Part shown: positions 14,989 to 59,060 of the stretch, piece by piece
How the letters are laid out: every line of letters begins with the position of its first letter
Position numbering within the stretch: the stretch's first letter is position 1
Source: Yuukianura sp. NJ FZ-2021
Taxonomy: Eukaryota
Assembly (NCBI GenBank): GCA_046563655.1
Contig: CM102284.1
Location: 1,178,001 to 1,242,000 of the forward strand
Direction: 5' to 3'
Length of the DNA stretch: 64,000 nt
Program-made: the position numbers and the translations under genes
Notes under the pieces: model-generated
Seen by the model: only the letters and a program-made list of their open reading frames with translations
Database searches by the model: none
What the model was told of the DNA's origin: nothing

Positions 14989-17462
14989 ATGTCTGACCAA
15001 TTGAATTTGAGCATATTCCTTTTTTTCTTCATTTTTACAAATATAGTTACTACTTCCTTGAGTTTTTCATTGGATTTTACAGATTTCAAGCATTGTTTTA
15101 TAGATATATTTGTATCTGACCGCAACACATTTCAGTTTTACAAATCTGAACACAACAAATTTGATATCAATGCATTAGTTACTGTTCGAGAGAACTTTAA
15201 CCACCCGCAAACTGATGATTACAAAAACAGGAAAACGCTAGCATGGAAGTCGAGTAAGCAAAATTGTTATGTTATTTTGGCCATTTACCCGAAAATAGAT
15301 TTTAGAATTTATAGAATATCTCGGGAGTACGGCTGGTTGCTAGGATGTGAACGAAACAAGTTTAGTTCCAAAAATTGTTACGGTAAATACACGTACTACA
15401 TAACTATTAACCCAGCACCTATTCTCTTACACGAACAACTTACTTGGTCATTTTGGAACGACGTTCCGTTGTTTGACTTGGCTATACAAAATAACATACT
15501 CGAAATTGCAACAACTCTGGCCAATCCATGTAATGTACGGCTCACGCGGAAAGTCTACGTCCAACGTTCCTTTACTGCCAATTCAACTAAAATTTCTCCC
15601 AATGTCGGGCGAGTACATTTGGACAATCTTTTGCAAACTGTGTTACTGTACGCATGTCCAATCAATTGGATTTATAGAATTTCACGAGACAGTTTAAGAA
15701 ATCAGAACATTTATAAAAAATGGAACAGTTCTGTAGAGAGTCCGCCTCCTACTCACTCACCCGAAGGCATGATTTGGAATATTGTCAAAGTAGTCAACTC
15801 CAAACAGGGACTAAATTTAGCAAATATTTCAATTCAACCTGCGCTGGTATTACCTGAGGTCCTGAACGTTTCAATGTTTTGGGATGTATCACAACTACCA
15901 GAAGATACGCGCAGAGTATTTCAAGTTCCTAAGCAAAGTGGTTACATAGTTAAGGCTAGTATAGTTGCCTACAACTTCATCACATGTTCTGGTACGGAAG
16001 AGTTCTTGACCTTTGAACCTCTCGTAACTCCGTTCAAAACTTTTGTTTGGATTGCAACTGTGGTAACGTTGTACGTTGTAACAGTTTTTCTGAAAATGAC
16101 ATTCCTGCCATCACTTCATTTTGGCAAATACGCATTTATCACATTTGATATACTTCTGGAGCAAGGAGTCAAAGTGTCTGAAAAAGTTAGAAAGTCAATC
16201 AAATTCAAATTTATTTTTGGCACACTGCTTATTTGTGGTTTGATTTTAACAAATTCGTATCGAGGCAAGGTTACCTCAAATTTAACAGCACCATTACCTA
16301 CAGCAAAAATGAAATTTATTGCTGAAGCTGTGGAAAGAAATTTCACCATTCTTCTACCCGTTCCCGAATCACAAGCGTCCGAAGTAAAGTGTAAGTAACC
16401 TAACAATTCTCAACCAATGCACAATTATTAGTGTACACAAAATTGTTCAACTTACATTTTGGTGAATCGCCCAACACCTAAAGTAATGCCCATATCACAA
16501 ATTGTTAAAGTAATAAACAGAATTATTATACTATAATATGAATATAAAATAACGACTATACTATAATACTATACATTGATACACGCTACAATACTATACC
16601 TATAATACTATATTTACTACCACAATATATTACATATACTCTTTGATTGCTATAATATAATAGGTAACCGTAACTATCATATTGGCGTACTTAGAGGAAA
16701 AACTGATAAGTTACAATTTTGCTTGCTTTTGTTGCAGATTGGGTGAATAGCCCTTCTTTACAAATTCCATTGCATAAGCGAATAGAAAAACTCAACAACT
16801 ACTTATGGTTCGGATTTTTGAAAAAAGTACGGCAGAAAATTCGACCCCGTGAAAATGTGACTGAAGAAATAAGCTTCATGAAGAAAATAAAGGCCTCAAT
16901 CGTTCTGGATTACTCTAACTTTCCTGAAATCACAAATTCAACTCTTACAGAACAGTTTTTACTATGCAACAAGAGTATTTTTGTTGGAACGCAGGAGGAG
17001 CTAGATAAACTTCATGCAGAATTAATACGCCAAGGAAATTCTGAAAATGTCGTTTACGGTGAAGACAACTTTTTACCAGAAGGTCGAGTGTTTGGTTTCG
17101 ACGAGTTGCAATGGGACAGACTTGATATAGTTCGCCGACGATTTGATGCTATATTTCACTCACATATTTTCTACTATTCACAAGCACTTAACAGTAGTTC
17201 GGTTTATACAGCGTTGAAAAAATTTAATACCAGAAACGATGGGAGAGCACATCGTTTGGGGAATGAAAGCAATTTACTTTTGTCAACGTATATTATATAC
17301 TTCTCATGCATTGCAATTTCAATTATCTTGATTCTTGGAGAACGTATTTATTTACTACAAACTCATTTCTCGGTTTTACCTTTCGCTGAAATATTTCATA
17401 CAAATTTGTTTCCTAAAAACATTCAATGTGTGTCTGTGGTTACTACAAATGTTTGGCAGTAG
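14989..17462 (+). CDS. Divergent IR-like receptor, two exons (14989-16390, 16738-17462)
   Basis: Exon 1 has the same length (1402 nt) as in the 6488 paralog and all family motifs are present. The tail after the last TM is frameshifted relative to that paralog. Confidence 0.78.
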
Positions 17463-18913: not shown

Positions 18914-25894
<6,981 letters not shown>

Positions 25895-34455: not shown

Positions 34456-37400
34456 ATGTCGCTTTTGCAGAGAGGGCGATCTGGTCAAGGACATCGAGGT
34501 GGTCGAGGTCATAATGGGAGAGGAAGAGGGGGACCTGGGGGTACACCTAGATCATGCTTTACTTGTGGACAAACTGGACATATTGGTCGCGATTGTCCAC
34601 GTATCGTTCCGTCTAGCTCACCAGGCCAGCCAAGAGATAATTGGAGACGGTAAGTCACCACCATCTGAACGTTATTCTTTACACGTTACACAGATAAGTT
34701 GTACACGTTACAACTAATCTATTGATTTTGTTTACCAATGTTGAAACTCTTTGTTTGATGCTGTAGGAATAACAATGTGGGCGAGCAACAAGAAACTCCC
34801 AATGGCAACCAACGTTCTCGTCCACCGGTCTTTGGCTTTACACGACTAAATGGATTTCTAAATGACGAATCTGGAGAGGTGATTATGTACATCGGTAGAA
34901 ACATTCCGGAGTGGTCGAACATTATCGAGTCGTTGCCAGATAGACCAGCTGAGTTCTTTGCCATCATCTTGCACGTACTTGCCAACAAAGTGTGCTGCCA
35001 ACAAGAAAATACTCTGTTACCCAATCGAGTCGAAGTAGTAACAAACACGCTTAAATCCAGCACTTTTACATCTCAGCTGCAACAACTCTACGGTCGAATG
35101 TTCAGCAATGAAGCACCTAACGCTGGACGTCGTGTAGAACCGAAGTTTAACGTTGACCAATCAAAATTGGGCTTATTGCAAAGTATTTACAGTATCTTTG
35201 CCTTCCTGACTCAACAATGTCCAAGTCTTGCCAGTGACGTAGTTCCAAGCACCGTTGTTCCAGGTGCCCTCGGGGTTATTTCTGTTCTATCCATGACATG
35301 TTCCCAGAGTGACAAGCCTAGAATCACAGAACTACAGGAGAAGTTCCAACAGCTGATTGAAATTATCAACACGTTCAAAGCCAAAACAAAAGTGGAAGCT
35401 CTTAACAAGCGACGGTTCAACGGTTATGAACTTACTCCGCAAGATGAAGAAACTCTACACACTCTTGCTCCACCGGAAGACTTTCGTGAAATTCCGATTA
35501 CTCCTACAATTGAAGAACTTTTGTCCTTAGAAGAACCGTTTCTTCGAACTAACAAAAGATCAGGAGGATACGCGGATTCTAACCACTATCTTGATGTCCA
35601 ATTTCGACTTCTGAGAGAAGACTTTGTCAAACCGCTTAAGACTGGGATTCAAGACTACAAAAAGCATCGGTAAGATAAACAGTCGATTGACTTCAAAATA
35701 GAAAACTCGTTTTGTATTTCTGATTTTTCATTTCCAGTGTGGACTATCTTAATCGCAAAAAGAAAATGCCTATGGGAAATGTCAGAATCTATGAAAATGT
35801 GACTATCCAGGACGTCGTTTTGAGCCGAGACGTAATGGTATACGGAGTTAGACTTCCAGCTGATCAGTGTCGTAGAATCAAATGGGACCGATCCAAACGC
35901 CTTTTGCATGGATCACTCTTGGTGTTTACCAGCGACTTGTTTCAAACAGCTCACTTTGCGATGGTAGCAAATCGCGACGTTGAGAAACTTACAAAACAAA
36001 ACATTCTTGGAGTGAACTGGATTGGAGAAGGCGAGATTCCGGATTTTGAAAAAACGTTTTTGATGGTCGAGTGTGAAGTGTATTTCGAAGCGTTCAGGTA
36101 AATACTGTTGAAAAGTGTTAAAAAGACTCTTTAGTCCTAAATACTATCAACCTAACCTGAAAAAAGCCTTGGTATGTTTCTACTAAAAGACCAGTAAGGA
36201 AAAACAACGTTTTTTCACAAATTTCAAATGACCCCAACTTCAGTCGAAAATTGAACTACAGTTGGGGTGTATTAAGATTTTTCCAAAAACGTTAGTTTTC
36301 ACTGATCGCTCAGTAGAAAACCTCATGTTTTTTTTTAAGTTAGATTCCGTTAAAATGAAGTTTCCGGTTTCAATTTACTAAAGCTTTTTTGTATATTTTT
36401 AGACACACATTGGCCATGTTGAAGAAGCTTAACCTTGAGAGTTTTCCAATGAAGAAGTTCATTGTTGATGCTTCGGGTACTGTTGGACCTCCGAAGTATT
36501 TAGAACTTTTGGAGCTGCAAGCGGGTAAAGAAGATGCGGAAATCTACAAAATTGGAATCCAGCACATTTCGCCATTAGTAGAGCCGTGGCCTTCTGCTGA
36601 GGAGCTTGGGCTTCCATTTGATGGCAATCAGTTTGAAGCATATCACGCGGCTATCACTAAAGAATTTTCGATCATCCAAGGGTAACCACTGATACATATT
36701 TAAATTAATAAGTTAAGGGAATACTTTATTTTGTTGAATTTGTTTTTATTTTCAGACCGCCAGGAACAGGAAAGACTTACTTGGGTCTAAAAATTGCAGA
36801 AACGTTTTTACGGAACATGAAAAGTTGGAGAAGGGAAGAGAGGGGACCAATCCTTGTTGTCTGTTACACCAATCACGCTTTGGATCAGTTTCTTGAGGGA
36901 ATTTTCGAAATCATGAAACAACTAAATCCAAAAGTGACTCCCGAGAATATGGAATTGATTCGTGTCGGAGGAAGATCCAAAAACGAAGCTCTGGAGCAAC
37001 TGAGTTTGGTCAACAAGAGGAGAGCAGCAAGTAGAATGAGAACTTTTTCGCACGATTATGCTCGGTCTGAACGCGAAGCACGATTTGAAGTTCGATCACT
37101 TGAGGAACAACTGGCATCTCTAAAAGCAGAAGCTGCTGGTTTGGGAGACTTGAGAGGTGAAAAAAATTGAGTTGAAACTTTTCCTTTTTCTTTGAAAATT
37201 TTGGAAAAAAAAAATATTTCTTCCCATTCTTAGGAGTCGTCAACATCTCAGCTCTGCGATGTTTACCTCAGTTGGAGCAAGACGTATCAGAAGGCATACT
37301 GGCTATGTTGGAAATGCCTTCCTTCCTAGGTCTGAATTCCATATTGTTCCAGTCTTCTGATTTTCAACCTCTTGGTTTACTGCGCATGTGGTTCAAAAAA

Positions 37401-40400
37401 CTTGATCCTGAAATTGAACAATCTGTTGGAATTGCTGCTCCCGTTTCGCGTGGCAATTCCAAGAACCCTTACAACGGTAACGGAAATGAAGTTGAAGATG
37501 GAGACGATGATGACGAGGAAGACTACGACATAGATGAGTTGATGGCTAATCGACTGGATGACAAGTATGAATACGAAGATGAAATCAAGTTTGAACTGTC
37601 CAAGAAAACGATGAGTGCCCATGTAGCCTATCTCAAGCACTATTCTGTGACGGGATGTGAACAGTTAGCTGACGACTGTCACTTCAAAATTAGCCAATTG
37701 AATGAATCCGCAAGCGACAAAAAATTGGATCGGAAGGCTAAGGACAAACTGCAGACGGATGCTGCTAATCTAACTAAGGAGATACTTGTTGTTGAAAATA
37801 CAAGAAGATTCCTGGAGTCGATCATGCGATTACACAAGGAGGGTCAGTTGGAGCTTCCAGACGTGACGAAATACATGGATAAGGAGGTTGACTTGAAGCT
37901 AAACCCGATTAATCAGCTGTCCATGACGGAGAAGTGGGCAATTTACTTCGGAGTTGTTGCAAAAGCGAGGAAACTAGCTATGAAGGCGATTTCAACTTTA
38001 AATGTTTCTTTGATTGCCGCTCAAAAGAAGTTGGAACAGATTCGACGATATGGCGATGGCATACTTCTGCGCCAAACGAAAGTTGTGGGAATGACGACCA
38101 CTGGAGCGGCAAAGAACCATGACTTTTTGGAAATGATGGAATCCAAAATAGGTATAAAAAGTTCACGACATTAATTAAATTAACATAGCTTAACTAATTA
38201 CTTCTACTGATTACTAATTACATTATTTACTTGCTTTTTAGTTATAGTGGAAGAAGCGGCGGAAGTACTGGAGTCACACATTGTTACTTGCATTACACAA
38301 CACTGCCAACATCTGATACTCATCGGTAATGTTTCTTAGATAAACTCGCACCATGTTATAACATAATGAAATGTTATCCCATTTATATAACTTGTACCTA
38401 TTGCTATGTAACTTACATTATACAAGTTTGCAATTGTGTACCTTTGACCTTCAGTTTTTGTTTTTAAGGCGACCACCAGCAACTACGTCCCAGTACAACA
38501 GTTTACGATTTGAGTACAAAATATTTTTTGGACATTTCGTTGTTCGAACGTATGCTGAACAATAATCTGAACTGCTATCGTCTCAAGGTTAGCAATTAAA
38601 ATGCTTGATATTGTCTGTACGTTTTCGTTAATCTACACCATTAGTCGGTTGATAACTCAACCTTTTGTTTATTTGTTAGGTGCAACATCGAATGCGTCCT
38701 GAAATTGCTGATTTGGTAGTCGGAACAATTTATCCTGAATTGGACAATGCACCGAACGTGTACGATTATCCCGATGTGGCTGGAATGCACTCCAACTTGT
38801 TCTTCATTGATCATCAGGAACATGAAAAATCAGTGAGTTTTTGTATACAAAAAATAAATAAAAAATTGATGTAATTCTTAAAATATTTGCATTTTTTGTG
38901 GTAGGAGGCAGATTCTATGAGCAAATCAAACACTTTCGAAGCACAGTTTTTGGCAAGGTTTTGTTGGTACCTGGTTCTACAAGGTTACGAGCCTTCTGAA
39001 ATCACGGTATTGACGACATATACTGGCCAAATGTTTCTGCTTAAGAAGGAGATTGGCCAATTGATGGAATGTAGAGGAGTTCGAGTGACCGTTGTAGACA
39101 ACTACCAAGGAGAAGAAAACAAAATCATCCTGCTTTCTCTTGTTCGAAGTAACGAAGACAATAACATCGGTTTCCTCAAAACTGATAACCGAATTTGTGT
39201 CGCCATTTCCCGCGCCAAGTAAGTCGATTTTAAAATTTTGAAATCTGATCGTGATGAGTGCGACGGCCAAAGTAAATTATCATTTTCTGTTGTATTTTTT
39301 AGGCATGGACTCTACATTTGTGGAAATATGAGCAACTTAACTTCGAAAAGTGACACTTGGAAGAAAATTAGAGAGAAGCTGATGAAACGACAAGAGATTG
39401 GAAGGAAGTTGAGACTTGTTTGTCAATTTCACCGAACCGTAACGGAAGTTGAAAAAGGCAACGATTTTCTAACGAAATCACCAGAGGGTGGTTGTCAGAG
39501 TCTCTGCGAAGCTCCACTCAAATGTACTCATAAATGTAGCTACATCTGCCATGCATCAGATCGTGAACATGAATTGAAATTCAAGTGCCTCCAAAGCTGC
39601 AAGAACTCTTGTAACAATGGGCATCCTTGTAGAGCATGGTGTTCTGCAAAGTGTCCACCGTGTGCCGTTTCCATGGAGAAGACACTCCCTTGTCAACACA
39701 AGCAGAACCTACCTTGTCACCGTGATCCTACTACTGTTAAGTGTTACGAGATGGTGGAAAAGGAGAAACCATGTGGGCATACGGATCAATTAGCTTGTTT
39801 TGTGGATCCAGCCAAGGTGAAATGTCGTGAAAAAGTCGTGAGACGGCTGGATTGTGGTCACGAGAAATCTGTTGAGTGTCATGTCGATCCTGGGACGATT
39901 ACGTGCAGAGTTGAAGTAACTAAAACCTTGGAGCCTTGTGGACATCAACAAACAGCTGATTGTCATCTCCGTCCGGATGTGATTAAGTGTGAGACGGATG
40001 TCGAACTGGAACTGCCGAATTGCAAGCACAAGGTAAGTTTTGAAAAAAAAAAAAAGAAAGCTTTGAGATCAGGATTTATGATGTTATAATCAGTTTTTTC
40101 TCAAATTTCTAGATTGTCGTGAAATGTAAAGTCGCGAAGGAAACGAAACTCGAATGTCGTGTTCAATGTACAACTCGTTTGGATTGTGGTCATCAATGTG
40201 TCAAACTTTGTCATCCGTTGTCTGATCCGGACCATGTGAACTACCAGTGTATGAAAGACTGTGCTCGGAAGTGTGTCAACGGTAAAACTTTTTTTGAAAC
40301 TGAAACTCGAAGGAAGTTTTTGTTTAGAGATTCAGTAAAAACTTTTTTTTTATTCCAGATCATCCATGCATTCAGAGACACAACTGCTATGTAGAATGTA

Positions 40401-42757
40401 ATCCATGTAAAACCTCTATTCGGAAAACGCTTAGTTGTGGGGTCCATACCAAAATGGTGCCTTGTAGTGTCCCAGTTGCGTCAGTTCAATGTGATAGTCC
40501 CTGCACTAAGACTTTGCCAATTTGTAACCACAAGTGTTTGAAGAAGTGTTTTGAACAATGCGCCCCATGCCAGGTTAGTCTTAGGTTGTCAATTAATTAA
40601 CCAATAATTAAACCTATTCCTCAACTTAACAATTTTATAGACAGTAGTAGAGAAAACGGCGACTTGTGGACATCAGCTTCCAACGAAATGTAGCGAGGTG
40701 GCATCAGCTGCTGAGTGTGAGAAACTTGTTCCCCCGAAAGAAAAAACATTATGCCATCACGACACACTGGTACCCTGTCGCCAAAAGAACTTTTGTGAGT
40801 TAACAATTTGCATAAGCAGTTAACTAATGTTAAGCTTAGGTAATAATAATGCATGCTTGTCTGTTTTACTATTAGTGAGTCCGACTCAAGTTCTGAGTTA
40901 CTGCAAACACCCATGTGGATACAAATTCGAACCGGCACTGGACAACGATAAAGGATGCAGTCACAAATGCCAAGGTAAAGTGAGTAGGTTTCCCTGCTTT
41001 AGCTACTGATAATAACTTTCAATTTATATCTATAATCGATTTTAAAGTTGTATCGATTTCGGTATAGGCACATGTATGGATTGTCATCAGGGTCGTCTTC
41101 ACATGAAGTGTCAAGAAAAGTGTGGGAAGGCTCTCATTTGTGGACATGTTTGCATCGCTCCGTGTGCTTCGGACTGCCCACCGTGCCGATCACCTTGTTT
41201 GATGGCTTGTGAACATTCGGTTTGTCGTGCTATTTGCGGCCAACCGTGTACTCCCTGCAGGGTAACAGTCTTAAAATAAAATATATTGCGCATTCGTCGG
41301 TTATCATGTTTACTTTCCGTTTTGTTTTTATTTCAACAGGAAAAGTGCAATTATAACTGCCCTCATAAACGATGTACGAAACTTTGTGGTGACCCCTGTG
41401 ACCGGGATCCATGTGACAAACCCTGTGCAAAACGACTCAAGTGTGGTCATCCATGTGTACGTATCAAATATCAATAAAATCAAAAGGTTTTAACCCTGCA
41501 ACATGCTTTTTGTATTGCAATTTCCCAGATTGGATTCTGTGGAGAACCATGTCCGCCTTTGTGTCGAATTTGTAACAAATCAGAATTGAGGGAATTTCAG
41601 TTGTATGGATTCGAAGAAGATGATGATGCCCGATTTGTTTATTTGGTGGAGTCGGACTGTAAGCATACTATCGAGGCGCAAGGGCTCAATCACTACATGA
41701 ACATGGAAGTTGAAGAAGGAGAAATTGGGATGAAGAAATGTCCAAGGTGTACAGCGCCTATACGTCACTCAAAACGTTTTGGAAACATCTTGAGATCCAG
41801 GCTCACTGATGTGATGGCCGTGAAGACTAAAATGTTCGGAGCCCTTGAAACCGAACCACTCAAGCGTAGTCTATTTGCTGAGGTTGAAGCCAATACGCGT
41901 GGAATGCAGAACATAATGAACGAAATCATTCCACAAATTGAATCGTACTTTAGGGAGAAATTGATTCGTGGAATTCAGTTTCAAGAGAGAACGAAGCAGA
42001 GAATTGTCAAATACAAGAACATTCCTTACGGGGAAGTGAAAAGTTTGGAGTTGATTTGGCGCCATGTCAATGACGTTTACTACATTTGCATTTCATCTCA
42101 AGGTCAACTTGCTGAAGTTGACTACACTTCACTCAAAATGAAGTATCAGCGCCTCTTCGCTGATTTATTGAAAAGAACACTTCCGCTGACGAAGACTGAA
42201 CAGGAGAATTTCGAAGCGGAGTTTGATCGACAGTACGACGTTTGTGAAGTATACAAACGTAAAAATGCAAAAGGATTTTACTCTGGACATAAAACTGCCA
42301 CTCCGTTGTACCAGAAAGCACTTGAACTTGTGTGTTGTATCACATCTTACTCCGAATCTAACAAGAACGAACTACAGAAAACTCTTAAGGTATTTCTAAT
42401 GCAAAATGTTTTCTGTTTAAAAGTGAAATTGCTAGATTCTTATTGGTGGAATTTTTTTAGGAACTGGACCATGAGATCAGAAGTGGGCTTCGAGTGACGA
42501 AACGAGAGAGACAAGACATTGTAAAAGCTTTTGGAGGGTCGCCAGGTCGTTTTTTCAAGTGTCGAAATGGACATATCTACGTCATTACTGAATGCGGTGG
42601 AGCTATGCAAGAAGCAAATTGTCCTGAATGTGGTGCTAGAATTGGAGGAACCAATCATCGTCTTCTAGCTGATAACCAACTGGCAACAGAAATGGACGGA
42701 TCCACTCATCCTCTCTATGGAGACGAGAACAATATCATTCCGGACTTCTTGGATTAG
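34456..42757 (+). CDS. ZNFX1: NFX1-type zinc finger-containing protein 1 (UPF1-like SF1 RNA helicase), multi-exon
   Basis: [47 protein letters not shown] (Walker A), [69 protein letters not shown], a long run of NF-X1-type Cys/His fingers, and C-terminal RZ finger [27 protein letters not shown]. Confidence 0.95.
36149..36346. mobile_element. Foldback/MITE-like element in a ZNFX1 intron
   Basis: Nested inverted matches: tttctact (36177)/agtagaaa (36312), aacgtttt/aaaacgtt, accccaact (36231)/agttggggt (36260). Confidence 0.6.
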
Positions 42758-43060
42758 TTTTTCCATGTCTAAAGTGAATTGGCGACTGAAATCTTTGGTG
42801 ATGTTGGGTTCGATTGCATCTCATGCACTTTTCACAGAACACAATGTTAATTAATAATTAATTAATCAAGTAATTTCAATTACTTAAAAATTTCAGAAGA
42901 AAAAATCAGTGCCATAGTTTGTAATCTTTAAAGAAATTATGGTGAATCATTCCAGTAAAAAAATTTAGGTAAATGTATTGGATGGGTTGTACTTTTTACA
43001 ATTTTATTGTAATTATAATTAATTATGACTTGTATTATTAATTATTTTTATTTTGGTTCA

Positions 43061-44002
43061 TTAATTTTGTTTATCCGTCTTAATTTGTAGAAAAATTTCG
43101 GCCATCGTACAGCGAGCGCTGCCACCTCCATTGTCTTCAATCGTACTCAAGTCCGAGTGGATGAGTTCATTGAACGTTTTGAGTTTTTGGATCTGCACAT
43201 GCGTGAGGACATTGTACGCACGAGTGGACATGACCAAGTACTTCTCTCCAGTTGAATTCTGAACTTGCAGCATATTTCCCGCGAAATTGTTCATTTGCGA
43301 AACACTAATTTCTATTATCTCTTTCCCAGAAGCTTCAATTGACTTTGTCACTTCTTGGCGTTCTACTGGATCAGTTATGGCATCCAGACAAACTACTGCG
43401 AACTTGTCTCCCAAGCACATCATCACATTCGTGTGGTAAATCAATTTACCATCATTATGTGATTCGAACAGGACAATCTTGGAGTAGTTCATAACAGAAG
43501 CAAACTTTTCAACCAGCGACGCATGCGTTCTGGCCGACCGACTTGCGTAGATGATCCTGTTTTGTCGATCCAGAATCATACTGCCAGTACCTTCCAGAAA
43601 CTGTTCAGAGGATTCCGATTTGGTCAAGTCCACCTTTCGTTCGATCTTGAAACGTTGTTGGATTAGGGACAAAACCGAAGCTTTCCGCTCGAGTCGTCGG
43701 TTTTTGGCGAGTAGCGGGAAGAGACAAACCGTTCCGTCGGAGTGAAACGAAATCCAGTTATTGGGGAAAATTGAGTCAGGAGTGGGTGGATCCGGGGTGT
43801 CATCGATCACAAGAACGACAATTCCAACAGAAGTTAACTTTGCAACGAAGTTGTCAAATTCTTGAAGAGCTTTTGATTGGATGAAACTCGACGAATCGTC
43901 GTCTGGACGTTTCTGGAAAGTATTGTCCAAGGCTGTCTCTGGGTTGAACCCGAAGTTTACTGGACGAATCATCAAAATCCTGCTGGCTGTTTGTGCTTCC
44001 AT
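43061..44002 (-). CDS. ctlX: Amidinotransferase/pentein superfamily protein, CtlX (citrulline utilization hydrolase)-like, intronless CDS, 313 aa
   Basis: ILMIRPVNFGFNPETALDNTFQ, PDSIFPNNWISFH, RRLERK, FLEGTGSMILDR, IYHTNVMMCLG, FAGNMLQV, IEDNGGGSARCTMAEIF are hallmark motifs of the bacterial CtlX-like family. Confidence 0.9.
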   Translation of the reverse strand: MEAQTASRILMIRPVNFGFNPETALDNTFQKRPDDDSSSFIQSKALQEFDNFVAKLTSVGIVVLVIDDTPDPPTPDSIFPNNWISFHSDGTVCLFPLLAKNRRLERKASVLSLIQQRFKIERKVDLTKSESSEQFLEGTGSMILDRQNRIIYASRSARTHASLVEKFASVMNYSKIVLFESHNDGKLIYHTNVMMCLGDKFAVVCLDAITDPVERQEVTKSIEASGKEIIEISVSQMNNFAGNMLQVQNSTGEKYLVMSTRAYNVLTHVQIQKLKTFNELIHSDLSTIEDNGGGSARCTMAEIFLQIKTDKQN

Positions 44003-45366
44003 GTTGGCAGGTACCTTTTACAGTAAGTTTAAAAAAAAATTAAAATTTTGTTTTGAAAAGTTTTTGATATTATTTTTAGTGTTTTATTTTGTGTATGTTG
44101 TATGGAATTTTTTTTTACCTGTTGAACTAATTGCTGTTTGACTTTTTGCAGATTTTTCAATTTCGTGCGGTGTTGATGAAGCTTTGTAGTTTTCTACAGA
44201 TTTGACAGCAATTTCTGACGAAAAGTGAGTGAAGAATTGTCATGGACGAGACCGATAAAAGTGAAGTTTTGTGATCGCGGTACTAAAAACTATAGTTTAG
44301 TTTAGAAAAAAAAGTCGTTAATTGTAAAGTTTAATTTTCTGATTGAGAAACTGACACCACTATGGTTTTGAATGACTGACGAAAGATGATGATTTATGTT
44401 GTGTCAAATGACAGGAACGATGAGTTAAACTTTTAGTTTATCTTTTCCAGACGTATTCAGTTACAGCTCCAAAGACGCTGACGTTTTATAAAAAGTGCTT
44501 CCCTAAAGCAAAGGAGCCAAAGCAGAATTTGAATTCTGCAAGAAATCCAGATTTATCCTAACTTTGTTTAGAAAAATATTTGTCACAAGTTATAAATAAC
44601 GTTAGGAATTGAGGTTAAGCGTCATTGAATGAAGAGTAGGTCAAAGGTCAAATTCGAAAATCCATTTCTGCTCGTGGTCGTGCATAGTCTCATGACCATT
44701 TTTTTTCACTGACGCAACGATAATTGGAGAGGCTAAGCACAGCTTTGTGTCTTCAGTCTACTACTGTTCAATTGTTTTCAAAATTATTGAGAATTACGAT
44801 TCAAAGAATTTGGGTTTAAAGAAACCCAGCAATGTTGACAGGTTTTTGCCATTTTGATTCTTTCTGGAATGTTCTGCAAATACGACTAATAGCTTTTATG
44901 ATGCAATTTTAGGCATTGGTTTTAGTAATCTATAGTCTTATCATGAATATTTGCAAAAACTAATTAAACTTTGCAGTTGAAACCACGACCACGACCGACA
45001 AACAGCAGAGGTGACTCAGCTGTAAACGTTTTCTTAGGTACACCTTGATTCTGTTATTAGGAAATGTTAATTTACTGGTTTGGCTAAATGCTAATTAGTC
45101 GTTAATCGTGATTAGTGATTCATCTGGTCAAGTAAAACGTATTTTGTTATGTTTTTCATATTGGTTAGCGACCAGACGCTCTTCGGCTGAAGCCCCACCT
45201 CGCGAGGAGAAGTTTTTGTTGTGCACAAAATCACGACACAATTGAAAAGTGTATGAGAAGGATTTTTAGGATACAGAAACACACAGACTACTGTTTTTAA
45301 AGCTCCTGATTTTATTTTTCTGGTAAAGTCATCCAAAGGTCACAATTAATTGTTTATAGTACGAAG

Positions 45367-47625
45367 ATGTATGGGACACAAGGTCAGCCAAATTTTTATC
45401 CGCCCCACCACGCTGGTGGGCCCGGTTTTGGGTCACCATTTCCCGGGGCACAGAATAAACCCGTTGGTGTTTATTGGTAAGCCTTTGTTCTTGGATTTAT
45501 AAACAGCTGTTGTGTTTCTTAGGACAAAGGAGCTGTGTAAGTTATGTAACTATGTTCAGTTATGTTATGTTATTGATGTAATCTACTAATTGTAACTTAT
45601 GTCATTTTAGGGATATTGAAAACTGTCCTGTTCCGAAGGACGTTTTGGCATCGTCCGTTGTTCATTTTATTCGTTCTTCGTTCATTTTGAACCGATTGAA
45701 TCATCGGGAGTTTGAGTTTCTGGTGGCAGCTGATGTACTGCGACTCAGGAAAGATATTTCAACGGATCTGGATAAAACTGGTAAGTTTGGGCTGTAACTT
45801 ATCGTTCAAGGTACGTTTTAAGGACTGGTTAATCGAGTAATGACTTCGTTTCTTACTGTTTAGGCGGAGTTGTGCTTGCTCATGTCAGTGGTGATAGCAA
45901 GAACGCTGCTGACGAGAAGATCCGAGAGAGCATGAAACGTTTCGTGGATACCCACGGTATTTTAACGAAGATTTACTATGTGGAACATTTGAATCGAATC
46001 ATAATCGTTTTGCAGCGACATTCAGTCCTATGCTGATTTTAATTTCTGGTGACATTGACTTTCTAAACGATTTACGAGGGTATCAAACTCGGTTGGGTTG
46101 TACGATTGTTGTTCTTCATGGAGCCACTGCTTCGCCCCATTTCAAAGCAGGATGGAATGAGGTAAGTTACAATAAAAATTCAAATGAACTTTCTTTTGCT
46201 TGAGCTTTCAGCTTGACTTTTACATCAATCTTATTACATCTTGAAAAAATTGCATTTTAACTAACTGTCTGTTGGTTCAAAAGGTCTATGCATTCAAAGA
46301 GTTTTTGCTAAGAATGCCCCCACCCGCTACGAATGCAGTGGGTGGTGGCAGTGGAAACCAACCTGCTATAAAGAACAAAGCCAATGGCGGTGCTGTTGCT
46401 GAAAACAAAGGTCAAGGTAGTGGAACTGGAAATATGAATCCAGGCACGAGACAGCCTAATCCTCAGCAACAGAATGCCGATTTTCGACCGAGGAATCCTG
46501 GCCAACAGAATGCTGATTTTCGACCGCGAAATCCTGGCCAACAGAATGCTGATTTTCGACCGCGGAATCCCGGCCAACAGAATGCTGATTTTCGTCCGCG
46601 AAATGCTGGCCCAAGAGGACCAAATCCGCAACAAAATCAACAGCAAGGGAACTTTAATCCCCGAAACGCTGCTCGCTTTCCCGCTCAGGGTGCTGCTCGG
46701 TTCAATGCAGGCGGGCAGCAGAATCAATATCAACAGAACCAGCAGCAACAGAACGTACCTGGCAACACTGGCGCAGATGCAGAACCGAAGCTTTCTAACA
46801 GAGCTAAAAAACGGTCACAGAAGCACGGCTCGAATCAGAATCTTGCTGGACCTCTTGCTGCTTCCAATGCTCCATCTCCTCAACCCGACGGACAGAACCA
46901 GCAGCCTCGACGGAACAAGAATAACGGTACTCCGCAGGGTGCCAATGGGGGTCCAGCAGGCCAGCGACATCCCAGTGGACAAAGTCAGGATGGAGGTCAG
47001 AACCAGAACGTCGGAGGAGTTGCTGGAGCGAAGAAGGAGAAGAAAGAAAAGAAACGCAAGAATTCTAATGCTTCGCAAGAATCGAATAATTCAGGAGGTA
47101 CATCAGGCAATCAAGCCAAAAATGATGCAAAAGGACCGAAACCGAACATTATTCTTATGGTTTCTGGATTACCCGGGAAAATGGACTTTCGTATTCTAAA
47201 GGACCATCTTCTAAAGGTGCTGCTTCTGGATCCGGGCCAGGAACTGATAACGGTAAGGAACCATTTCTATTAGTAATCCAGTTAAGTAATTAATAATTAA
47301 TTATTAATTCAATATAAATTCATTCAATTAGTGATTTTTTACATGGACAGGTCAGAGTGCTGCCGCTGGATTTGTTATGGTGGATACTCCCCCACCGCGT
47401 CCACCTCCACTATTCAATGCTGGAGCTGGAAATGCTGGTAATTCAAGCCCTGGATTCTTATCCAGCAGCTCATCAAACAGCAACTTCCAGGCATTCGTCG
47501 GTTTCGCTACGGCTGCAATGAATGAACTTGCTCTGAATCAAGCTGGGCAGCAGGAGGGGGCGACCGGCGGACAGAAAAAGAAGAAGGAAAAGGTCAAGGC
47601 GGATCCAAACTGCGTCGTCCAGTAA
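45367..47625 (+). CDS. NYN-domain (MARF1/Limkain-b1-type PIN-fold) ribonuclease with Q/N/G-rich disordered region and a degenerate RRM-like segment
   Basis: Spliced exons give KPVGVYW|DIENCPVP...SKNAADEKI...LILISGDIDF..DL..., the NYN acidic motifs. Exon 46283-47252 is low complexity and ends IILMVSGLPGKMDFRILKDHL (RNP2-like). The last acceptor is ambiguous (cag at 47355 is in frame with MVDTPPP). Confidence 0.85.
46467..46610 (+). repeat. 36-bp coding tandem repeat x4 (QQNADFRPRNPG)
   Basis: Four near-identical copies of caacagaatgc(c/t)gattttcg(a/t)ccg..aatcc(t/c)ggc. Confidence 0.95.
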
Positions 47626-53433: not shown

Positions 53434-54180
53434 TTAGAATTCAGGAAACTCCTCATTTTGAATTTTGGCGCTACTAAAATTTCTTCCCGCCAATGGCCTA
53501 CTGCTACTACCTCCACTTACAATAACGAAATCCTCAGATCTTTGATGCTGTCCATTTTCTGTTTTGTTTTCACTTTGATGTGGAAAGTACAACAAAATTG
53601 GAACTTTCTTCTCAAATTCTTCCCGACGACTTGGAACTTTCTTTTTAAATTCTTGCAGCTGTATTGGAACTTTCGTATTTTCAAATTCTTCCCGCAGAAC
53701 TTGTTTGTTTTCAAATTCCGCGCCTAACCTCTGACCTTCTCTTGTGGCTTGAGTAGCGGATGTCTCCGTCCAGTTGAGATTAGAATTCAATTTTGTTAGA
53801 AGTAGAGCCGGTCTAGAATTGGATCTGTTCTCATTCAATTTGTCACGTCCTTCCGCTCCCACCGAAGACTCATTTTCCTCTTCCTCAATTCTAGAAGTCC
53901 ACTCCGAAGTACTCTCCGTGCTGAAAGTGCTGGGAGAACTGAAAGTAGTAGTCCTAATCCCGGAAGGATTTGAACGTGGAAAGAACTTTCTTTCCTCATT
54001 TCTTCCTAAAGCCCAATTTATACTTTTCGTTTCCCTGGCGTTTCCCGGGCAAAAGTTTGTCGTAGGAGACGATTTTAACGAAAACTTCATGACGTTTGTA
54101 TTTAAAATTCGGTTGTTATAGACGTCTACGACAAACTTTTGCCCGGGAAACGCCAGGGAAACGAAAAGTATAAATTGGGC
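53434..54180 (-). CDS. Probable out-of-frame continuation of the kelch/mucin-like ORF
   Basis: Frame is open from 54180 to 53434 with similar S/T/E/N-rich composition and internal repeats (REEFE.KVPI). It is offset by one frame at the inverted duplication. Confidence 0.4.
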   Translation of the reverse strand, partial: AQFILFVSLAFPGQKFVVDVYNNRILNTNVMKFSLKSSPTTNFCPGNARETKSINWALGRNEERKFFPRSNPSGIRTTTFSSPSTFSTESTSEWTSRIEEEENESSVGAEGRDKLNENRSNSRPALLLTKLNSNLNWTETSATQATREGQRLGAEFENKQVLREEFENTKVPIQLQEFKKKVPSRREEFEKKVPILLYFPHQSENKTENGQHQRSEDFVIVSGGSSSRPLAGRNFSSAKIQNEEFPEF

Positions 54181-54182
54181 TT
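54009..54182. repeat. Perfect 57-bp inverted repeat with 60-bp spacer
   Basis: 54009-54065 (aagcccaatt...gtcgtag) is the exact reverse complement of 54126-54182. Confidence 0.95.
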
Positions 54183-56318
54183 AAGCTCCTTTCTCCCGAA
54201 GGTTTTTGATCTTTGAGCCAATTGTGGGGGGCTGTCGTGCCACTAATCCCAGGATCAATTGAACTTTGGTTTTTGGCGGGAAAATTAGGGGTGACGGTAG
54301 GAGGATTTGAACTGGCGTTTCTGCTAAGCCAATTACTACGTTGGGTTGTGGTGGCGCTTAAGTTTGAATTTGATAAACTTTTAGTCTGAAAGAAGAGCTT
54401 AGCGGTGGAATTAATCATTTGACGTTGATTCCGCTTGACTTTGACAGGGATTGTCGGGAATGGAAGGTTTAAGAAAAATTTGGCGGGAGAGATTGGATTT
54501 GAATTTGAACTGGAATTGATTGGCACGTAATTGAGTTTAGGTTTGGCGCTAATTTTTGAAATTAGTTTTGAATTTAGTAAAGTTGAAATGGTAGCTTCTA
54601 TGCTAATGTTGGAAGCTGATTCTGGTTCTTTCTCGTGATTGGTTGAGACGATGATTTCTTTCCGCTGATTGGCTGCAGCAACGTCATCGATGATTTCTTT
54701 CTTTTGATTATTGGCTGCAACGAAATTCCCTGTCTCCTGATTGGTTGCAGAAATGTCGCCTGCTTTCTGATTGGCTGATGAAATGTCGTCTATGCTTGAA
54801 CTGTTTTGGTCCGCGGGTAAATTTAAATTGGAAATGTTGGTTACATGTGGTTTGAATTTTGCCGCTGCGGCAAACAGTGGTACCGAATTTTGATTGGCTG
54901 CTGGATGTGAACCAGTGATGTTGCTGATACTTTGGCTTGCAAATTGTGCTGGAAAATTTGAATTCAAATTTGAATTTGGCGCTTCTGTGGTAGAGTTCCC
55001 GCTGTTTGACACATTCAGAGAAGACTGGACTTCTGGAATGCTGTAATGGCTAGGTGGAATGTCACGTCGCGGAAGGAAGACGGTCGTATCTGGTTGGATT
55101 CTGACCAAAAACGTTTTTGATTGGTTGAGGTCAAAGGTCAAGGTCACATGACGTGGGTTGACTAAGTAAACAGTTCTGTTTTCACCAGAATACGACACAA
55201 CAATGTGGTAGAATCCCTGCAAATGTTGAAAAGAATCAAGGCTTGGTCCTCTCCATATGTTTTCAAGCGGTTGAACTTTGCCGCTAGAATGATCGTGGAT
55301 CCAAAAATCAACCAACTTGTGATACGCAACAACCAACAGCGTTTGACCTTTGACCTTCACAGCCGCCATGACGCAGGCTCCTGGTTGGCTTACTCCCTCA
55401 AATGCCGAATTCAGCGTGATTGTCGAAATCCAACGAATTGAGTTATCCTCAGTTCGAATCTCATAAACTTCCCGCCTTGATTTTGACTTCTCGCTTGAAT
55501 TATATGTTGGACACAGTATGTATGCGAGGTCATCGTCACTAGCTGTGATACATGCTGGGTCAAAGATTGCAGTAAAGTTGACCTCGCGTGACCCCGTGAC
55601 CTTGAGGGGGTCCAGTTTCATCCACTCTGTCACTTCGAGGTCAAATTTCCACCAATCCAGTTTCAGTGACTCACGTGACCCGTTTTCCCGGGAATTTAAA
55701 TTTAAAGCCATCAGAGCATCATGGGAGCACCACAAAATGTGTTTCTGTCCAGCACGTTCTTCGTCAAAGTGCGGACAAAATTCAAGTGTCGTGTTTTGGT
55801 CAGGAATGCACGCGTCGCAGCAAATGTACGACGTCCAGAGTCCGCTGTCGGATGAACTCGGAAGTCCGTTCGGAATGTCATAGAGCCAAACAGTGTTGTC
55901 TTCGTCAAACAACGGGTCAGCAGAGGTCATTGACCCCTCTTGTTCAAGTCCTCCAAAAACGGCTAGATGTCCGCTTGAAACACTTCCGCACATTATGATT
56001 TTCCTGAGATTTTGAGGATAGGAGCTCAGCGGAGTCGGAGTGTCTCTAATTGGTCGGAAAACCGGTTTCCATTTCCCGCCATTTCCGAGTGCCCAGAGGT
56101 CACCGAGTACTTCCGAGTCACTTCCGGTTGAAGTAGAGTCACTTCCGGTTGAAACCGACTCACTTCCGGCTGAAGTGTGGTTAATCCGAGGTCGTTGACC
56201 TCCGAAGATCCACCAAGTTCCGGCAGAGTCGTACCAGACAGCAGGGTTGATCCGCGGAGGTGGAATGTCGCCGTGGCTGGAAGCGACATTCGGCTGAACT
56301 CCTTCCAAAATCTCCCAC
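54116..56318 (-). CDS. Large exon encoding kelch/galactose-oxidase-like repeats followed by a Ser/Thr/Asn-rich stalk; upstream exons not resolved
   Basis: 730-codon open frame with PPPRINPAVWYDSAGTWWIFGG...LGDLWAL and LAVFGG...VWLYD kelch-like motifs, many N-x-S/T sequons, and an acceptor-like AG near 56319. Confidence 0.6.
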
Positions 56319-57156
56319 TCTATTTTTCAAAAAAACGAAAAAAGTTGTAATAAAAAATTTATATAAAAAAATCTCATTCAGCCCCAACTTGAAAGATTTA
56401 TTGCTCCCGCCTGAAAGTGTGCCTGAGTCTCATAAAACACAATTACGACTTACTCTTTTGGAAAAGCAAAAAGAAAATTCTTATCACACTTGGAACTTTC
56501 TCCTGCTGCGGCAGTTACTGCACTGGTAAGAGGCAATTTTCAAAAAAAAAGTTAGAAAGCGCGCCAAAAATCACATTTTGAAAAAAAGAAGAGATTTTGG
56601 AGAGAGGAGGATAGTATAGCATCATTTCCGTTCCAAAAGAATAAAAAGTGGCTCAACTTCTCGATTATACTGTGCGTTTTCTTCATTGCTTTTAGTAGAC
56701 TTTATAGTCTTTTGTAAAATATAGACGTTATAGTACTTTCCAAACATATAGTACTTTAAATTTTTTAGGCTTTTTCAAAAGTAGATATTTGAAATTTCTC
56801 TTTTTGGCAAAAGAAATTATGTGGAATGAAATGGGAGGCTGACAGGAAAGAAATGGGTTCCAATAAACAGAAAATGGAAGACAATAAACATCGAATGCAC
56901 TTGAATGCATTGCATAACGCTTGAAACCTAATATTACATTTTGTATATTGCCCAAATTAGGTTCAAATGCATGTCTTAAAAACTTCGAGTCAAATTGCGT
57001 TGCTAATATTTTAGCAACGAGGTGTGAAAGTTGAATTGTTAAAAACCCGTCAATCTCCATGTATAAATGAATATTCACCCCCCCCCTCCCCCCCCGATAC
57101 GCCAAAAGTAGTCAGCGTGGATGTAAGTTTTTACCAACATTCCTACCAACCCTATA

Positions 57157-57378
57157 CCAACATATTGCCAACATATTGCCAACATGTTGCCAACATATTG
57201 CCAACATATTGCCATCATATTGTCAACATATTGCCAGCATATTGCCAACATATTGCCAACATATTGCCAACATATTGCCAACATATTGCCAACATATTGC
57301 CAACATATTGCCAACATATTGCCAACATATGGCCAACATATTGCCAACATAGTGCCAACATATTGCCAACATATTGCA
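57157..57378. repeat. 11-bp minisatellite (ccaacatattg) x~20
   Basis: Directly visible tandem array, preceded by a poly-C tract at ~57077-57095. Confidence 0.95.
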
Positions 57379-59060
57379 TAAGGTTATGTAAGGCAAATGT
57401 TATGTTATGCTAGTTTTTGCTAAGTTTATGTAGCCTATGTTAGTCAAAACCAATAGTCGCTTCATTTCTGATAGACATTCATACCCAAATCCTTTTCCAA
57501 CTTCACCAAACTCCAATTTTGAACAAAATTTATATTCGAAGAACTTTTTCTTCGAAATTTTGAATTTAAGTGGAATTGATATTCCAACAAAAGTGGATAA
57601 AAACCAAGAGGCTTGAGATTTGAAAAAGCAATTTCCACACACAAAATTTTATGATGATAGTTTTATTAAATTTTATGATATTTTGTTTTCGCACAAAAAT
57701 TCCTCTTCCGGAACAAGAAAATTCGATCTTTTGTTCAAGAAATTTTATGTATGTTTGTACAGAACTTTAAATTTTGTTTTAATTTTCACAAAAATTGTAG
57801 TGTCATGAACCATTTGTCTGCATTTTTTTAAAGTTTACTCGAAAAGAGATTAGATAATAGATAGTAGTGAGCAAAGAGACAGAAAAGTAGTTTTTTGTAT
57901 TTTAAATTTCGTGCGGAAATTTTTGGAATTTAACATTTTTGAAAAAAGTGAAAGGTGAGGCGTGTAATTTTTGGTGTAATAATTCAAGTGTGAGTTTTTA
58001 ATTGAAAAAATTTGAAAGATGAAAGAAGACATGAAACGTCGCAACTTTTGATGTTTTTTGACAAATTAGGGCTTTCCATTTCTCATCATGTTTCATGAGG
58101 CGTGCCGACTTGTAAGACATTTTTTACTGCCACTTATGGAAACCTTGTGGGAAAAGGTTTAATCATTTGCTAAATATTTCTGGCTGTCGACGACATCTAA
58201 GTGTCAGTGGCAGGTGGATTTAAGTGCTGCGGAGGGAGTGAGGAGGGGGAGGAGGTGGAGGGAGGAGGAGGAGGAGGGAGACTTGTCGTGCAACCTCTAC
58301 TATAGTTAGTAGGGGGCAGACGTCGCCACTGGAAACTTTTCAGCGTCGGATTCCGTTTTTCTCCTGTCGTGCCCAACTGTGTCGCTCTGCTTCTCGTTGG
58401 AAGGCGGGAGATTTATGACAATCACTTGCACTACATACGAGACAATATGGTTCCATGCTAGATTCCCATTTTCTAACAAAGAACTTCTGCCAGTACTGCC
58501 AGTACTACTGCCACTTTCACCTTATTCTTCCAGAAAACCCATATGCAGACAAGGAAGCATTTATCAAGCTCAACTGTCCAGGAGAACAGAATACTTAACT
58601 TTCACCTCCTGTTTCTCCCATTTCCCAAATCTGAAATTGGCTGAACTTCACTCGACCTACTTTAGTTGTACCCACGAGTTCGAATCTTCCTGGCCTCAAA
58701 CAACTCCTTCCCGAATAGCCTGTATAATCAATCTCAAACAATGTCACATGACCTTCCAAAAAAAAACGATTTTTAACGCGAATATGAAAACTTTACCTAA
58801 CGCGAAATTTCCAGCTGGCAACACTGTGTCACTAACTTATACACCAATTTACAACCAAATTTCATTCCATTTGATTCACTGAAGGCTACAAATTGTAATG
58901 AAACTTTGCTTTTTGGTAGCGGCAACACTGCAACAATTTGACGGCGTGGCAAACACAATTTTTTGGTTTAAAATTATTTTCCAGTGTTGCCGTTGTGAAG
59001 TTCGCGCGTTTTGTGCAGTAGGAAAGATAGAAATTAAGTAAAGGTAGGTTAACGTAGGCT

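Follow-up and report, generated by a model that had tools for sequence, protein, structure and literature searches.

A Bacteroidota-type ctlX gene, probably an old transfer, between host genes of an arthropod-lineage genome

CtlX, the closest described relative of the gene reported here, is a putative bacterial citrullinase; in the available text of the study describing it, the activity is inferred genetically, without biochemical demonstration (PMC9007349). The same text presents asparagines in place of two substrate-binding aspartates, which turn FTRD into FPNN and HLD into HTN, as diagnostic of CtlX (PMC9007349). A partial parallel in animals is offered by PADI genes, reported as cyanobacterial acquisitions (PMC8826395). 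Like the gene studied here appears to do, they encode a pentein-superfamily arginine/citrulline enzyme gained by animals through horizontal transfer; by their description in the accessible part of that report, they are set apart by a different family, a protein-arginine substrate, a different donor, and vertebrates as recipients (PMC8826395). The “citrullinase” of Arabidopsis was also considered and was set aside, being a PADI-like activity of agmatine iminohydrolase that has no relation to CtlX. Among animal sequences, a homolog is encoded on a 7-Mb contig of Folsomia candida (LOC110852013); its product, XP_021955660.1, carries the label “uncharacterized protein”. A longer Folsomia gene model, P0124, predicts this protein with 53 additional aa upstream and is uninformative on introns. 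We found no literature report of the CtlX/PF19420 family in animals; supplementary lists of horizontally transferred genes in springtail genomes may already include the Folsomia copy.

The window, by which we mean the whole 64,000-nt stretch of DNA analysed, contains a ctlX-like ORF that was compared with these systems (Table 1). Its product matches Pfam PF19420 over the full length (E = 2.8e-98, far beyond chance), which is its sole Pfam match, and scores 414.6 bits with the NCBIfam equivalog NF046062 (citrulline utilization hydrolase CtlX), for which the curated cut-off is 334; residues 8–304 align with profile positions 2–299 of 299. The first-pass annotation had described an intronless frame of 313 aa carrying the family motifs, and this description holds: the frame runs from ATG to TAA, IYHTN (residues 188–192) and GGGSARC are present together with IFPNNW (residues 78–83), and both diagnostic CtlX substitutions are found in the sequence. 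By analogy with the pentein family, Cys298 is predicted to be the nucleophile. Bacterial CtlX, represented by NF046062 and by homologs from Chitinophagaceae and Sphingobacteriales, is thus matched in score above the cut-off, in FPNN, HTN and GGGSARC, and in length, at 48–57% identity. Judged by profiles and motifs, the ORF is a full-length CtlX pentein of bacterial type. Its proposed separation from animal GATM, DDAH and PAD was likewise borne out, both by the single Pfam match and by structural matches to DDAH and GATM that reach 13–16% identity. As an aside, the name of PF19420, “DDAH_eukar”, suggests that further, more distant eukaryotic relatives of this family exist.

Table 1. Features of the ctlX-like locus and its neighbours (positions in the window)
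Feature	Position	Strand	Description	Basis
ZNFX1-like host gene	34759..42757	+	many exons; AAA_11 and AAA_12 helicase, RZ-type zinc finger	Pfam on exons, homolog search, tblastn of arthropod ZNFX1
Second AATAAA copy	43003-43008			motif scan
AATAAA, candidate polyadenylation signal	43047..43052	-	starts 12 nt past the ctlX stop; function inferred	motif scan
ctlX-like CDS	43061..44002	-	313 codons plus TAA stop, ATG start, intronless	ORF list, sequence, PF19420, NF046062
Cys298 codon in GGGSARC	43109..43111	-	predicted catalytic nucleophile	alignment-invariant
HTN codons, H190-T191-N192	43427..43435	-	replaces HLD; contains the catalytic His	alignment-invariant
FPNN codons, F79-P80-N81-N82	43757..43768	-	replaces FTRD of guanidino-acting penteins	alignment-invariant
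Candidate 5'UTR intron	44015..44118	-	104 nt, GTAAAA...AAAAG	sequence and splice scores
Other neighbour, divergent from ctlX	~45582..47622	+	Q/N-rich repeat exons, possible NYN domain; extent approximate, from ORF pieces	

Differences from bacterial CtlX lie in the setting of the gene. Its counterparts reside in bacterial genomes; the window gene belongs to the nuclear genome of an arthropod, where split host genes flank it, its codons follow host preference, and its 3′ signals are eukaryotic in type. It is also devoid of the ADI-family partner, which directly precedes ctlX in 55 of the 74 bacterial loci whose upstream sequence was long enough to judge. No ADI-like sequence was detected in the window (all tblastn matches had E > 1). 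The missing partner is expected if, as we suppose, a single gene was transferred, and it has no bearing on the enzyme family. In Proteobacteria, ctlX adjoins ocd or aruFG.

Split eukaryotic genes identified by Pfam around ctlX include an ABC transporter, a class-3 lipase, the ZNFX1-like gene and Use1. Pfam searches with ten long exon-like ORFs gave nothing, and matches were obtained with shorter, better-placed exon pieces. The ZNFX1-like gene, whose stop codon occupies positions 42755-42757, is convergent with ctlX, and 303 nt separate the two stop codons. Arthropods account for 10 of the 12 named ZNFX1 matches, and no collembolan is among them; on that count, the host does not resemble a near relative of springtails. 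For the neighbour on the other side, the NYN label proposed in the first-pass annotation can be kept as a possibility: it relies on a sub-threshold Pfam match (E = 0.09, 13.7 bits with a cut-off of 24.2). The flanks of ctlX are AT-rich host DNA with AATAAA signals. Repeats flanking the gene were limited to short matches of 12–30 nt, with no terminal repeats and no target-site duplication. The ORF had also been considered conspicuous because it is intronless among split genes; it indeed has no intron, but this state is not odd in itself, because uninterrupted coding stretches of the host reach ~0.9–2.2 kb nearby.

Linkage of ctlX with its neighbours was assessed using assembled contigs that match the window exactly. 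The sequencing runs listed for this locus included no RNA run. Contigs of three runs, X1 (42678-43139), X2 (42784-43157) and X3 (42758-43139), connect the final ZNFX1 exon with the 3′ end of ctlX across the spacer. These runs come from one sample, maybe the source of the window itself, and are not independent evidence; among the rows listed, it is the 3′ side of the gene that is bridged. Of the linkage to both flanking host genes that had been anticipated, the ZNFX1 side is the part bridged by contigs, in that one sample. In the window and in these contigs, ctlX is physically linked to native host genes.

We have also recorded the ends of contigs in the vicinity of the gene. Loose ends occur in all runs at ~42847-42891 and 44042-44085, flanking ctlX. 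In organism B (run X5), contigs are present on both flanks, depth is zero in bins 43213-44014, and loose ends are located at 44052 and 44085. Because no contig joins across the gene, this gap does not show that the relative lacks ctlX.

Codon usage was examined by correlating relative synonymous codon usage (RSCU) of the ctlX-like ORF with that of 2388 host codons. The value obtained (r = 0.61) falls within the baseline of r = 0.42–0.75, determined by comparing 313-codon chunks of host sequence with the rest of the host. The same comparison with 75 bacterial homolog genes gave a mean r of -0.04 and a maximum of 0.32. The codon usage of ctlX has converged on that of the host.

These observations bear on the question of whether a bacterial read or contig was joined to host sequence, through contamination or chimeric assembly. 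Such an origin could be suspected from the intronless ORF with bacterial best matches, and from the fact that the DNA runs containing most of ctlX all derive from one sample. It is extremely improbable, however, in view of codon usage that is host-like and dissimilar to each of the 75 bacterial homolog genes, and of an identity to the best bacterial protein of just ~57%. The AT-rich flanks with their polyadenylation-type signals, the contigs of three runs in which a host exon is joined to ctlX, and the absence of any gene of bacterial type beside ctlX, including the ADI gene that normally precedes it, point in the same direction.

To place the gene among its relatives, 5.8 billion clusters were searched twice, and both times the named rows among the best 120 consisted of 12 Bacteroidota and one Folsomia candida. 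Bacteroidota also make up, by title, 77 of the 80 genome loci collected. The nearest named bacterial relatives are Bacteroidota CtlX proteins, within the identity range given above, and the closest of the metagenome proteins, P0001, is 66% identical. The DNA context of P0001 was sought in a metagenome scan; its 80 loci were all ≤58% identical, and the contig of P0001 was not among them. Five of the 80 loci (L112, L140, L145, L152 and L160) were dropped from the trees, as the ORF extracted from them was outside 280–340 aa. A careful tree was built under a mixture model from 55 rows, comprising 43 of the 75 retained loci and 12 others, and was rooted on one Ignavibacteria sequence.

In this tree, the window protein forms a clade with P0001 and P0002 (support 99/97), which is joined with Folsomia, P0138 and P0139 (96/90); with the Ignavibacteria root, this whole group falls within the Bacteroidota radiation. 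The group shared with the window protein therefore comprises the Folsomia homolog and five proteins, the fifth being P0121, a near-identical cluster mate of P0001, and by these groupings the gene also occurs outside this host. The Folsomia protein resembles the window protein in being an animal-encoded CtlX homolog and in sharing D26, which is found in 0 of 81 other rows, while it differs in being just 54–55% identical and in forming a separate long branch together with two proteins. The expectation that the protein would nest among bacteria agrees with the tree, as far as a single outgroup and a backbone that is a polytomy permit. When analysed alone, the two animal-side halves attach weakly to different bacteria, one with two Bacteroidales MAGs (79) and the other with Parapedobacter (72), which places the donor no more closely than Bacteroidota.

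The same data speak to vertical inheritance, that is, to an ancient eukaryotic pentein lost from most animals with no transfer involved. In accordance with such a history are the Pfam family name, the assignment of trypanosome RESC5 to the PF19420 family by structural similarity, the clustering of the two arthropod genes, and the orthogroup with PF02274 that nematodes and tardigrades share (PMC5531438), which lies outside the sampling of our tree. We nevertheless regard it as very unlikely. Folsomia is the sole named eukaryote among the best 120 rows of each search, so the broad metazoan distribution that would speak against a transfer was not encountered there; the animal-side clade lies within and not outside the Bacteroidota radiation; and the mean identity of the window protein to bacteria (52%) is inside the range observed among bacteria themselves (mean 56%, minimum 46%).

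Conservation of the protein was evaluated on the alignment of the 75 bacterial rows. The window protein keeps 52 of the 56 columns that are invariant in these rows, and, when the threshold is set at ≥95% conservation, 77 of the 81 columns. The four substitutions at invariant positions are all conservative, and one of them, M299T, adjoins the catalytic Cys. An origin in bacteria, integration, and constraint over a long time are well supported as a reading of the sequence, because codon usage, kept invariants, Bacteroidota relatives, the tree and the host-gene context all lead to it.

The first-pass annotation had further proposed a gained intron in the 5′UTR. A donor (CAG/GTAAAA, with its G at 44118) and an acceptor (TAAAAG/GTACC, ending at 44015, 12 nt before the ATG) are indeed present on the minus strand, and the segment between them fits host intron length. 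In comparison with 17 scored host introns, the donor is typical (7.1), while the acceptor (1.2) is below 15 of the 17. Acceptors of the AAG type, on which the proposal drew, are used by the host at 22204 and 24486, where conserved ABCC motifs define their position, and a third case was found at 38468; that at 46282 is plausible. An equal or better donor/acceptor pair, however, turns up in 14% of 250-nt windows (350 of 2550) and in 7% of the sequences obtained by shuffling the upstream 250 nt (141 of 2000). The intron is accordingly kept as a candidate that is compatible with host splice signals, its pair of sites being within chance expectation.

An upstream splice-like signal at chance level is also what an integrated gene would display if it were silent or non-functional, an intact-looking relic, and the four altered positions, among them M299T, could be viewed in the same way. 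We consider this unlikely. Host-like codon usage implies age, and in an aged relic stops, frameshifts and lost invariants are expected, whereas the frame is open over all 313 codons, nearly all invariant positions are kept, and intact related copies exist in the sister group. The gene is probably a Bacteroidota-type ctlX that entered the nuclear DNA of an arthropod lineage by an ancient transfer and has since been maintained by purifying selection. The horizontal acquisition originally suggested fits a CtlX of bacterial type that is nearest to Bacteroidota, embedded among host genes, conserved, and written in host codons.

In the AF2 model, the ctlX-like protein has a mean pLDDT of 91.2, and its best matches among solved structures are penteins, namely the N-domain of the ArgZ/AgrE arginine dihydrolase and DDAH, with a TM-score of up to 0.80 (target-normalised). 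Searching the PDB by sequence gave no match with a single-sequence query, and only E ~1 with a profile query. The predicted pentein fold is supported by the model together with the PDB matches. Animal DDAH and cyanobacterial ArgZ/AgrE are thus alike in fold, but they are 14–17% identical to the window protein, which has Asn where they have the substrate-binding Asp.

The product would be an active cytosolic Cys-His pentein hydrolase, converting free L-citrulline to ornithine, ammonia and CO2 via carbamate, as proposed for bacterial CtlX. In the probable donor group, the ADI-family gene followed by ctlX would take arginine to citrulline and then to ornithine. An animal with the second gene only, as in this window, would need citrulline supplied by host nitric-oxide synthase, diet or microbes, which is speculation on our part.

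An expressed enzyme might alternatively use another substrate, such as arginine, methylarginines or a different ureido/guanidino compound, in the manner of DDAH or arginine dihydrolase. The nearest solved folds belong to precisely these enzymes, the NCBIfam arginine dihydrolase model gives a weak match (E = 4.2e-05), and the reaction of bacterial CtlX is without in vitro demonstration in the available text (PMC9007349). Another substrate is nonetheless improbable, given that, as in CtlX, Asn occupies both positions at which guanidino-acting penteins bind substrate through Asp, that the score with the arginine dihydrolase model is 22.9 bits where its cut-off is 450, and that identity to DDAH and ArgZ is so low. 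Citrulline is the substrate suggested by the CtlX-type residues.

Small arthropods are well known to have received genes from bacteria, and the phenomenon is not new. The locus presented here is a credible example of an animal that has adopted a bacterial gene, and not an unusual one. Its grouping with the springtail gene raises the question of one origin as opposed to repeated transfers. It is possible, although we hold it rather doubtful, that both genes come from one transfer, which yielded an arthropod CtlX lineage with a one-step route from citrulline to ornithine. This would imply that a common pancrustacean ancestor acquired the gene long ago and that it was then widely lost, or else that a gene of bacterial origin later moved from one arthropod to another. 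If it were so, citrulline from nitric-oxide synthase or diet could be drained without urea-cycle enzymes. To our knowledge, the step from citrulline to ornithine is absent from standard animal metabolism, and we know of no animal that has it. Should the enzyme be active, the host gains this step, and the case would add an enzyme of nitrogen metabolism to the known transfers from bacteria to arthropods.

An uninterrupted coding sequence of 313 aa had been proposed in the first-pass annotation, and the ctlX-like gene is indeed a continuous ATG-to-TAA reading frame. The Pfam family PF19420 matches its whole length (E = 2.8e-98), and the NCBIfam equivalog model NF046062, "citrulline utilization hydrolase CtlX", gives the ORF 414.6 bits, its curated cut-off being 334. 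Three family motifs are present, namely FPNN (F79-N82), HTN (H190-N192) and GGGSARC with Cys298. In the paper that defined CtlX (PMC9007349), changes from FTRD to FPNN and from HLD to HTN are given as diagnostic in comparison with guanidino-acting penteins.

Features of the window and of two bacterial loci (L081 and L084, loci with ctlX homologs)
Feature	Position	Strand	Remarks
ABCC-type transporter gene	~19-25.7 kb		many exons
Class-3 lipase gene	in window		split eukaryotic gene
ZNFX1-like gene	~34.8-42.76 kb		AAA_11, AAA_12, RZ-type zinc finger; split eukaryotic gene
Use1 gene	in window		split eukaryotic gene
ctlX-like gene	43061-44002	-	313 aa
Candidate 5'UTR intron	44015-44118	-	
Bridging contig, run X1	42678-43139		exact match
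Bridging contig, run X2	42784-43157		exact match
Bridging contig, run X3	42758-43139		exact match
Possible NYN gene	~45.6-47.6 kb	+	Q/N-rich repeats; Pfam NYN match sub-threshold (E = 0.09)
ADI-family gene before ctlX	L081:1384-2898		
ADI-family gene before ctlX	L084:1408-2847		

G+C contents of 28-48% and the split eukaryotic genes identify the window as host DNA, most likely that of an arthropod, possibly a crustacean, that has no closely related annotated species, as judged by sequence similarity. When the last large ZNFX1-like exon served as query in a homolog search, 13 matches were obtained, 12 of them with a named organism: 10 from arthropods (ostracod, stick insects, mayflies, aphids, crab and firefly) and two from sea urchin, the top match having 33% identity over 89% of the query. 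When eight of the matched proteins were compared with the window by tblastn, the highest summed score was obtained with the crab protein. The label "NYN" given to the other neighbour is plausible but not established, its Pfam match being sub-threshold. At 46245-47270 (+), this gene includes a long exon-like ORF whose product abounds in Q, N, G and P and repeats a peptide unit like QQNADFRPRNPG four times in tandem; it has no Pfam match.

Further observations concern the rest of the window. A one-strand series of long ORFs (481, 255, 474, 227, 315, 204, 221, 469 and 250 aa) extends over 6452-17462 (+); the three compared with Pfam gave no match, and, judging by its ORF sizes, the series may be a repeated gene family or one large gene with many exons. 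An uninterrupted 736-aa ORF at 54119-56326 (-), without a Pfam match at E <= 0.001, is followed by a 248-aa ORF at 53437-54180. The tandem repeat at 57015-57410 can be read as ANILPTYCQHI-like units on either strand and in several frames, and resembles a minisatellite rather than a gene.

Contamination as a source of ctlX is argued against by three lines of evidence. Relative synonymous codon usage of the ORF correlates with that of 2388 host codons at r = 0.61, within the range of 0.42-0.75 obtained when host chunks of 313 codons are compared with the rest, whereas the correlation with genes of 75 bacterial homologs averages -0.04 and reaches 0.32 at most. Exact-match contigs, assembled independently from public DNA runs X1, X2 and X3, join the last ZNFX1-like coding exon, a 303-nt spacer and 79-97 nt of the 3' end of ctlX, thus linking it on this side to the flanking host gene, as a consistency check and not as independent proof, since all three runs come from a single sample, possibly the source of the window itself. 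Furthermore, AATAAA occurs on the ctlX strand 12 and 56 nt past the stop, the ADI-family partner gene usual in bacteria is absent beside ctlX, and no repeats flank ctlX in the window. The ctlX gene in the window is real, intact and host-adapted.

Loose ends of contigs from all four runs (X1-X3, and X5 of another organism) cluster at 42847-42891 and 44042-44085, just outside both ends of ctlX, and the sample of X1-X3 holds versions of the region at >=99%, 95-99%, 90-95% and <90% identity. Possible explanations are haplotypes or paralogs that have diverged, a further copy in different surroundings, or a form of the locus lacking ctlX.

To trace the origin of the protein, the best 120 rows of a search through 5.8 billion protein clusters were considered. 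The top match, P0001, from a 1.2-kb metagenome contig, is 66% identical, followed by 62%, 59% and a continuum of 52-59%. Thirteen of these rows bear an organism name, 12 being Bacteroidota (Chitinophagaceae, Puia, Sediminibacterium and Sphingobacteriales) and one the springtail Folsomia candida, whose homolog (54% identity) lies on a 7-Mb contig. A second search, with a profile built from the four sequences that were most "animal-like", again listed 13 rows with a named organism, 12 of Bacteroidota and one of Folsomia, with no further named eukaryote among the matches listed, and added P0138 and P0139, each 70% identical to the Folsomia protein. Scanning one genome per prokaryotic species returned 80 loci, 77 of them Bacteroidota by title.

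For the trees, LG+C20 PMSF was used. With its root on a single Ignavibacteria sequence, the 88-row tree places a seven-row clade (SH-aLRT 86) within a larger, otherwise all-Bacteroidota group. A careful tree of 55 rows unites the window protein with P0001 and P0002 (99/97) and Folsomia with P0138 and P0139 (100/100), and joins the two halves (96/90) inside a Bacteroidota radiation of unresolved branching. As a control for long-branch attraction, each half was removed in turn; alone, they attach weakly to differing long-branched bacterial groups, two Bacteroidales MAGs (support 79) or Parapedobacter (72). The trees therefore single out no donor group within Bacteroidota, and the union of the halves is moderately, not firmly, supported. 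Two derived residues are strictly shared by the halves, D26 (in none of 81 other rows) and K100 (4.9%), while the 35 control pairings share none or one, which speaks slightly for common ancestry. If the host is a crustacean, a single transfer common to it and the springtail would mean that the gene has been lost very widely; possible alternatives are two separate transfers whose donors were related, or passage of the gene from one arthropod to another. In either tree the nesting agrees with the bacterial acquisition proposed initially, as does the host-like codon usage, and ctlX is, on present sequence evidence, a gene of Bacteroidota-type origin in an arthropod genome.

The window protein keeps 52 of 56 columns invariant in 75 bacterial rows, departing at Y95F, M97L, F178L and M299T, and 77 of 81 columns conserved at >=95%. 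Its identity to bacterial rows averages 52%, compared with 56% (minimum 46%) among bacteria themselves. Host-like codon usage and the intact conserved frame suggest that the gene has probably been in the host for a long time under purifying selection. AlphaFold2 gives a confident model (mean pLDDT 91.2, pTM 0.89), and its best matches among solved structures are penteins, the N-domain of cyanobacterial arginine dihydrolase ArgZ/AgrE and DDAH (14-17% identity). Searching the PDB by sequence gave no match, and we know of no solved CtlX structure. By family membership, the enzyme would be a Cys-His hydrolase with the ureido group of free citrulline as its target, yielding ornithine, ammonia and CO2. 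The bacterial reaction itself is presented as a genetic inference never demonstrated in vitro (PMC9007349).

We have also addressed the gained 5'UTR intron proposed just upstream of ctlX. The splice-like sequences are present, CAG|GTAAAA with its G at 44118 and TAAAAG|GTACC ending at 44015, 12 nt before the ATG. For reference, 17 host introns fixed at ABCC and ZNFX1-like exon boundaries have a median of 78 nt (range 66-143), donors that include GTAAAA, and CAG, TAG or, in 2/17, AAG acceptors; the AAG acceptor noted earlier at 22204, fixed by conserved Walker-A context, is a third host case. In the candidate, 104 nt long, the donor is typical (score 7.1) but the acceptor weak (1.2, below 15/17 host introns). 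An equal or better pair occurs in 350 of 2550 stretches of 250 nt across the window and in 141 of 2000 shuffled versions of the 250 nt upstream. The intron is possible, yet not supported. On inspection by eye, no ATG comes ahead of a stop in the reading frame on the upstream side of the putative donor, so the exon, if real, is non-coding. In some contigs there is a T>A change at 44017 (plus strand), which by our reading would make the weak AAG acceptor a TAG on the minus strand, and in some AAG is inserted behind 44107, within the candidate intron.

Two Chitinophagaceae genomes have ctlX immediately after a gene of the arginine-deiminase family (ADI, PF02274) that encodes ~480-500 aa. The upstream sequence reaches 1400 nt or more in 74 bacterial loci, and in 55 of these such a gene directly precedes ctlX on the same strand (Chitinophagales 29/34, Sphingobacteriales 12/12, Cytophagales 5/7, Flavobacteriales 0/9). 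The pairing is the usual one in Bacteroidota and suggests a two-step route in the donor group, from arginine through citrulline to ornithine. The accessible sections of PMC9007349 name ocd or aruG as neighbours in Proteobacteria and contain no mention of this pairing. No ADI-like sequence was found within the 64-kb window, so that, at this locus at least, only the second step is present in the animal; speculatively, its citrulline might be supplied by nitric-oxide synthase, food or microbes.

Eukaryotes also contain more distant relatives, as shown by the Pfam name of PF19420 ("DDAH_eukar"), one trypanosome protein whose structural similarity has placed it in the family, and a PF02274 orthogroup shared by nematodes and tardigrades (PMC5531438). 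None was among the best 120 matches listed in either search, so they are further from the window protein than Bacteroidota CtlX; our trees cover neither the trypanosome protein nor the orthogroup. We found no literature tying CtlX or PF19420 to an animal genome, although supplementary lists of transferred genes may include the Folsomia copy, annotated only as an uncharacterized protein. For PADI, a pentein of another family, transfer into animals has been reported (PMC8826395). Small arthropods, springtails for example (PMC5490193), are well documented as recipients of bacterial genes, and ctlX in the window adds an example to this already-known type of event.
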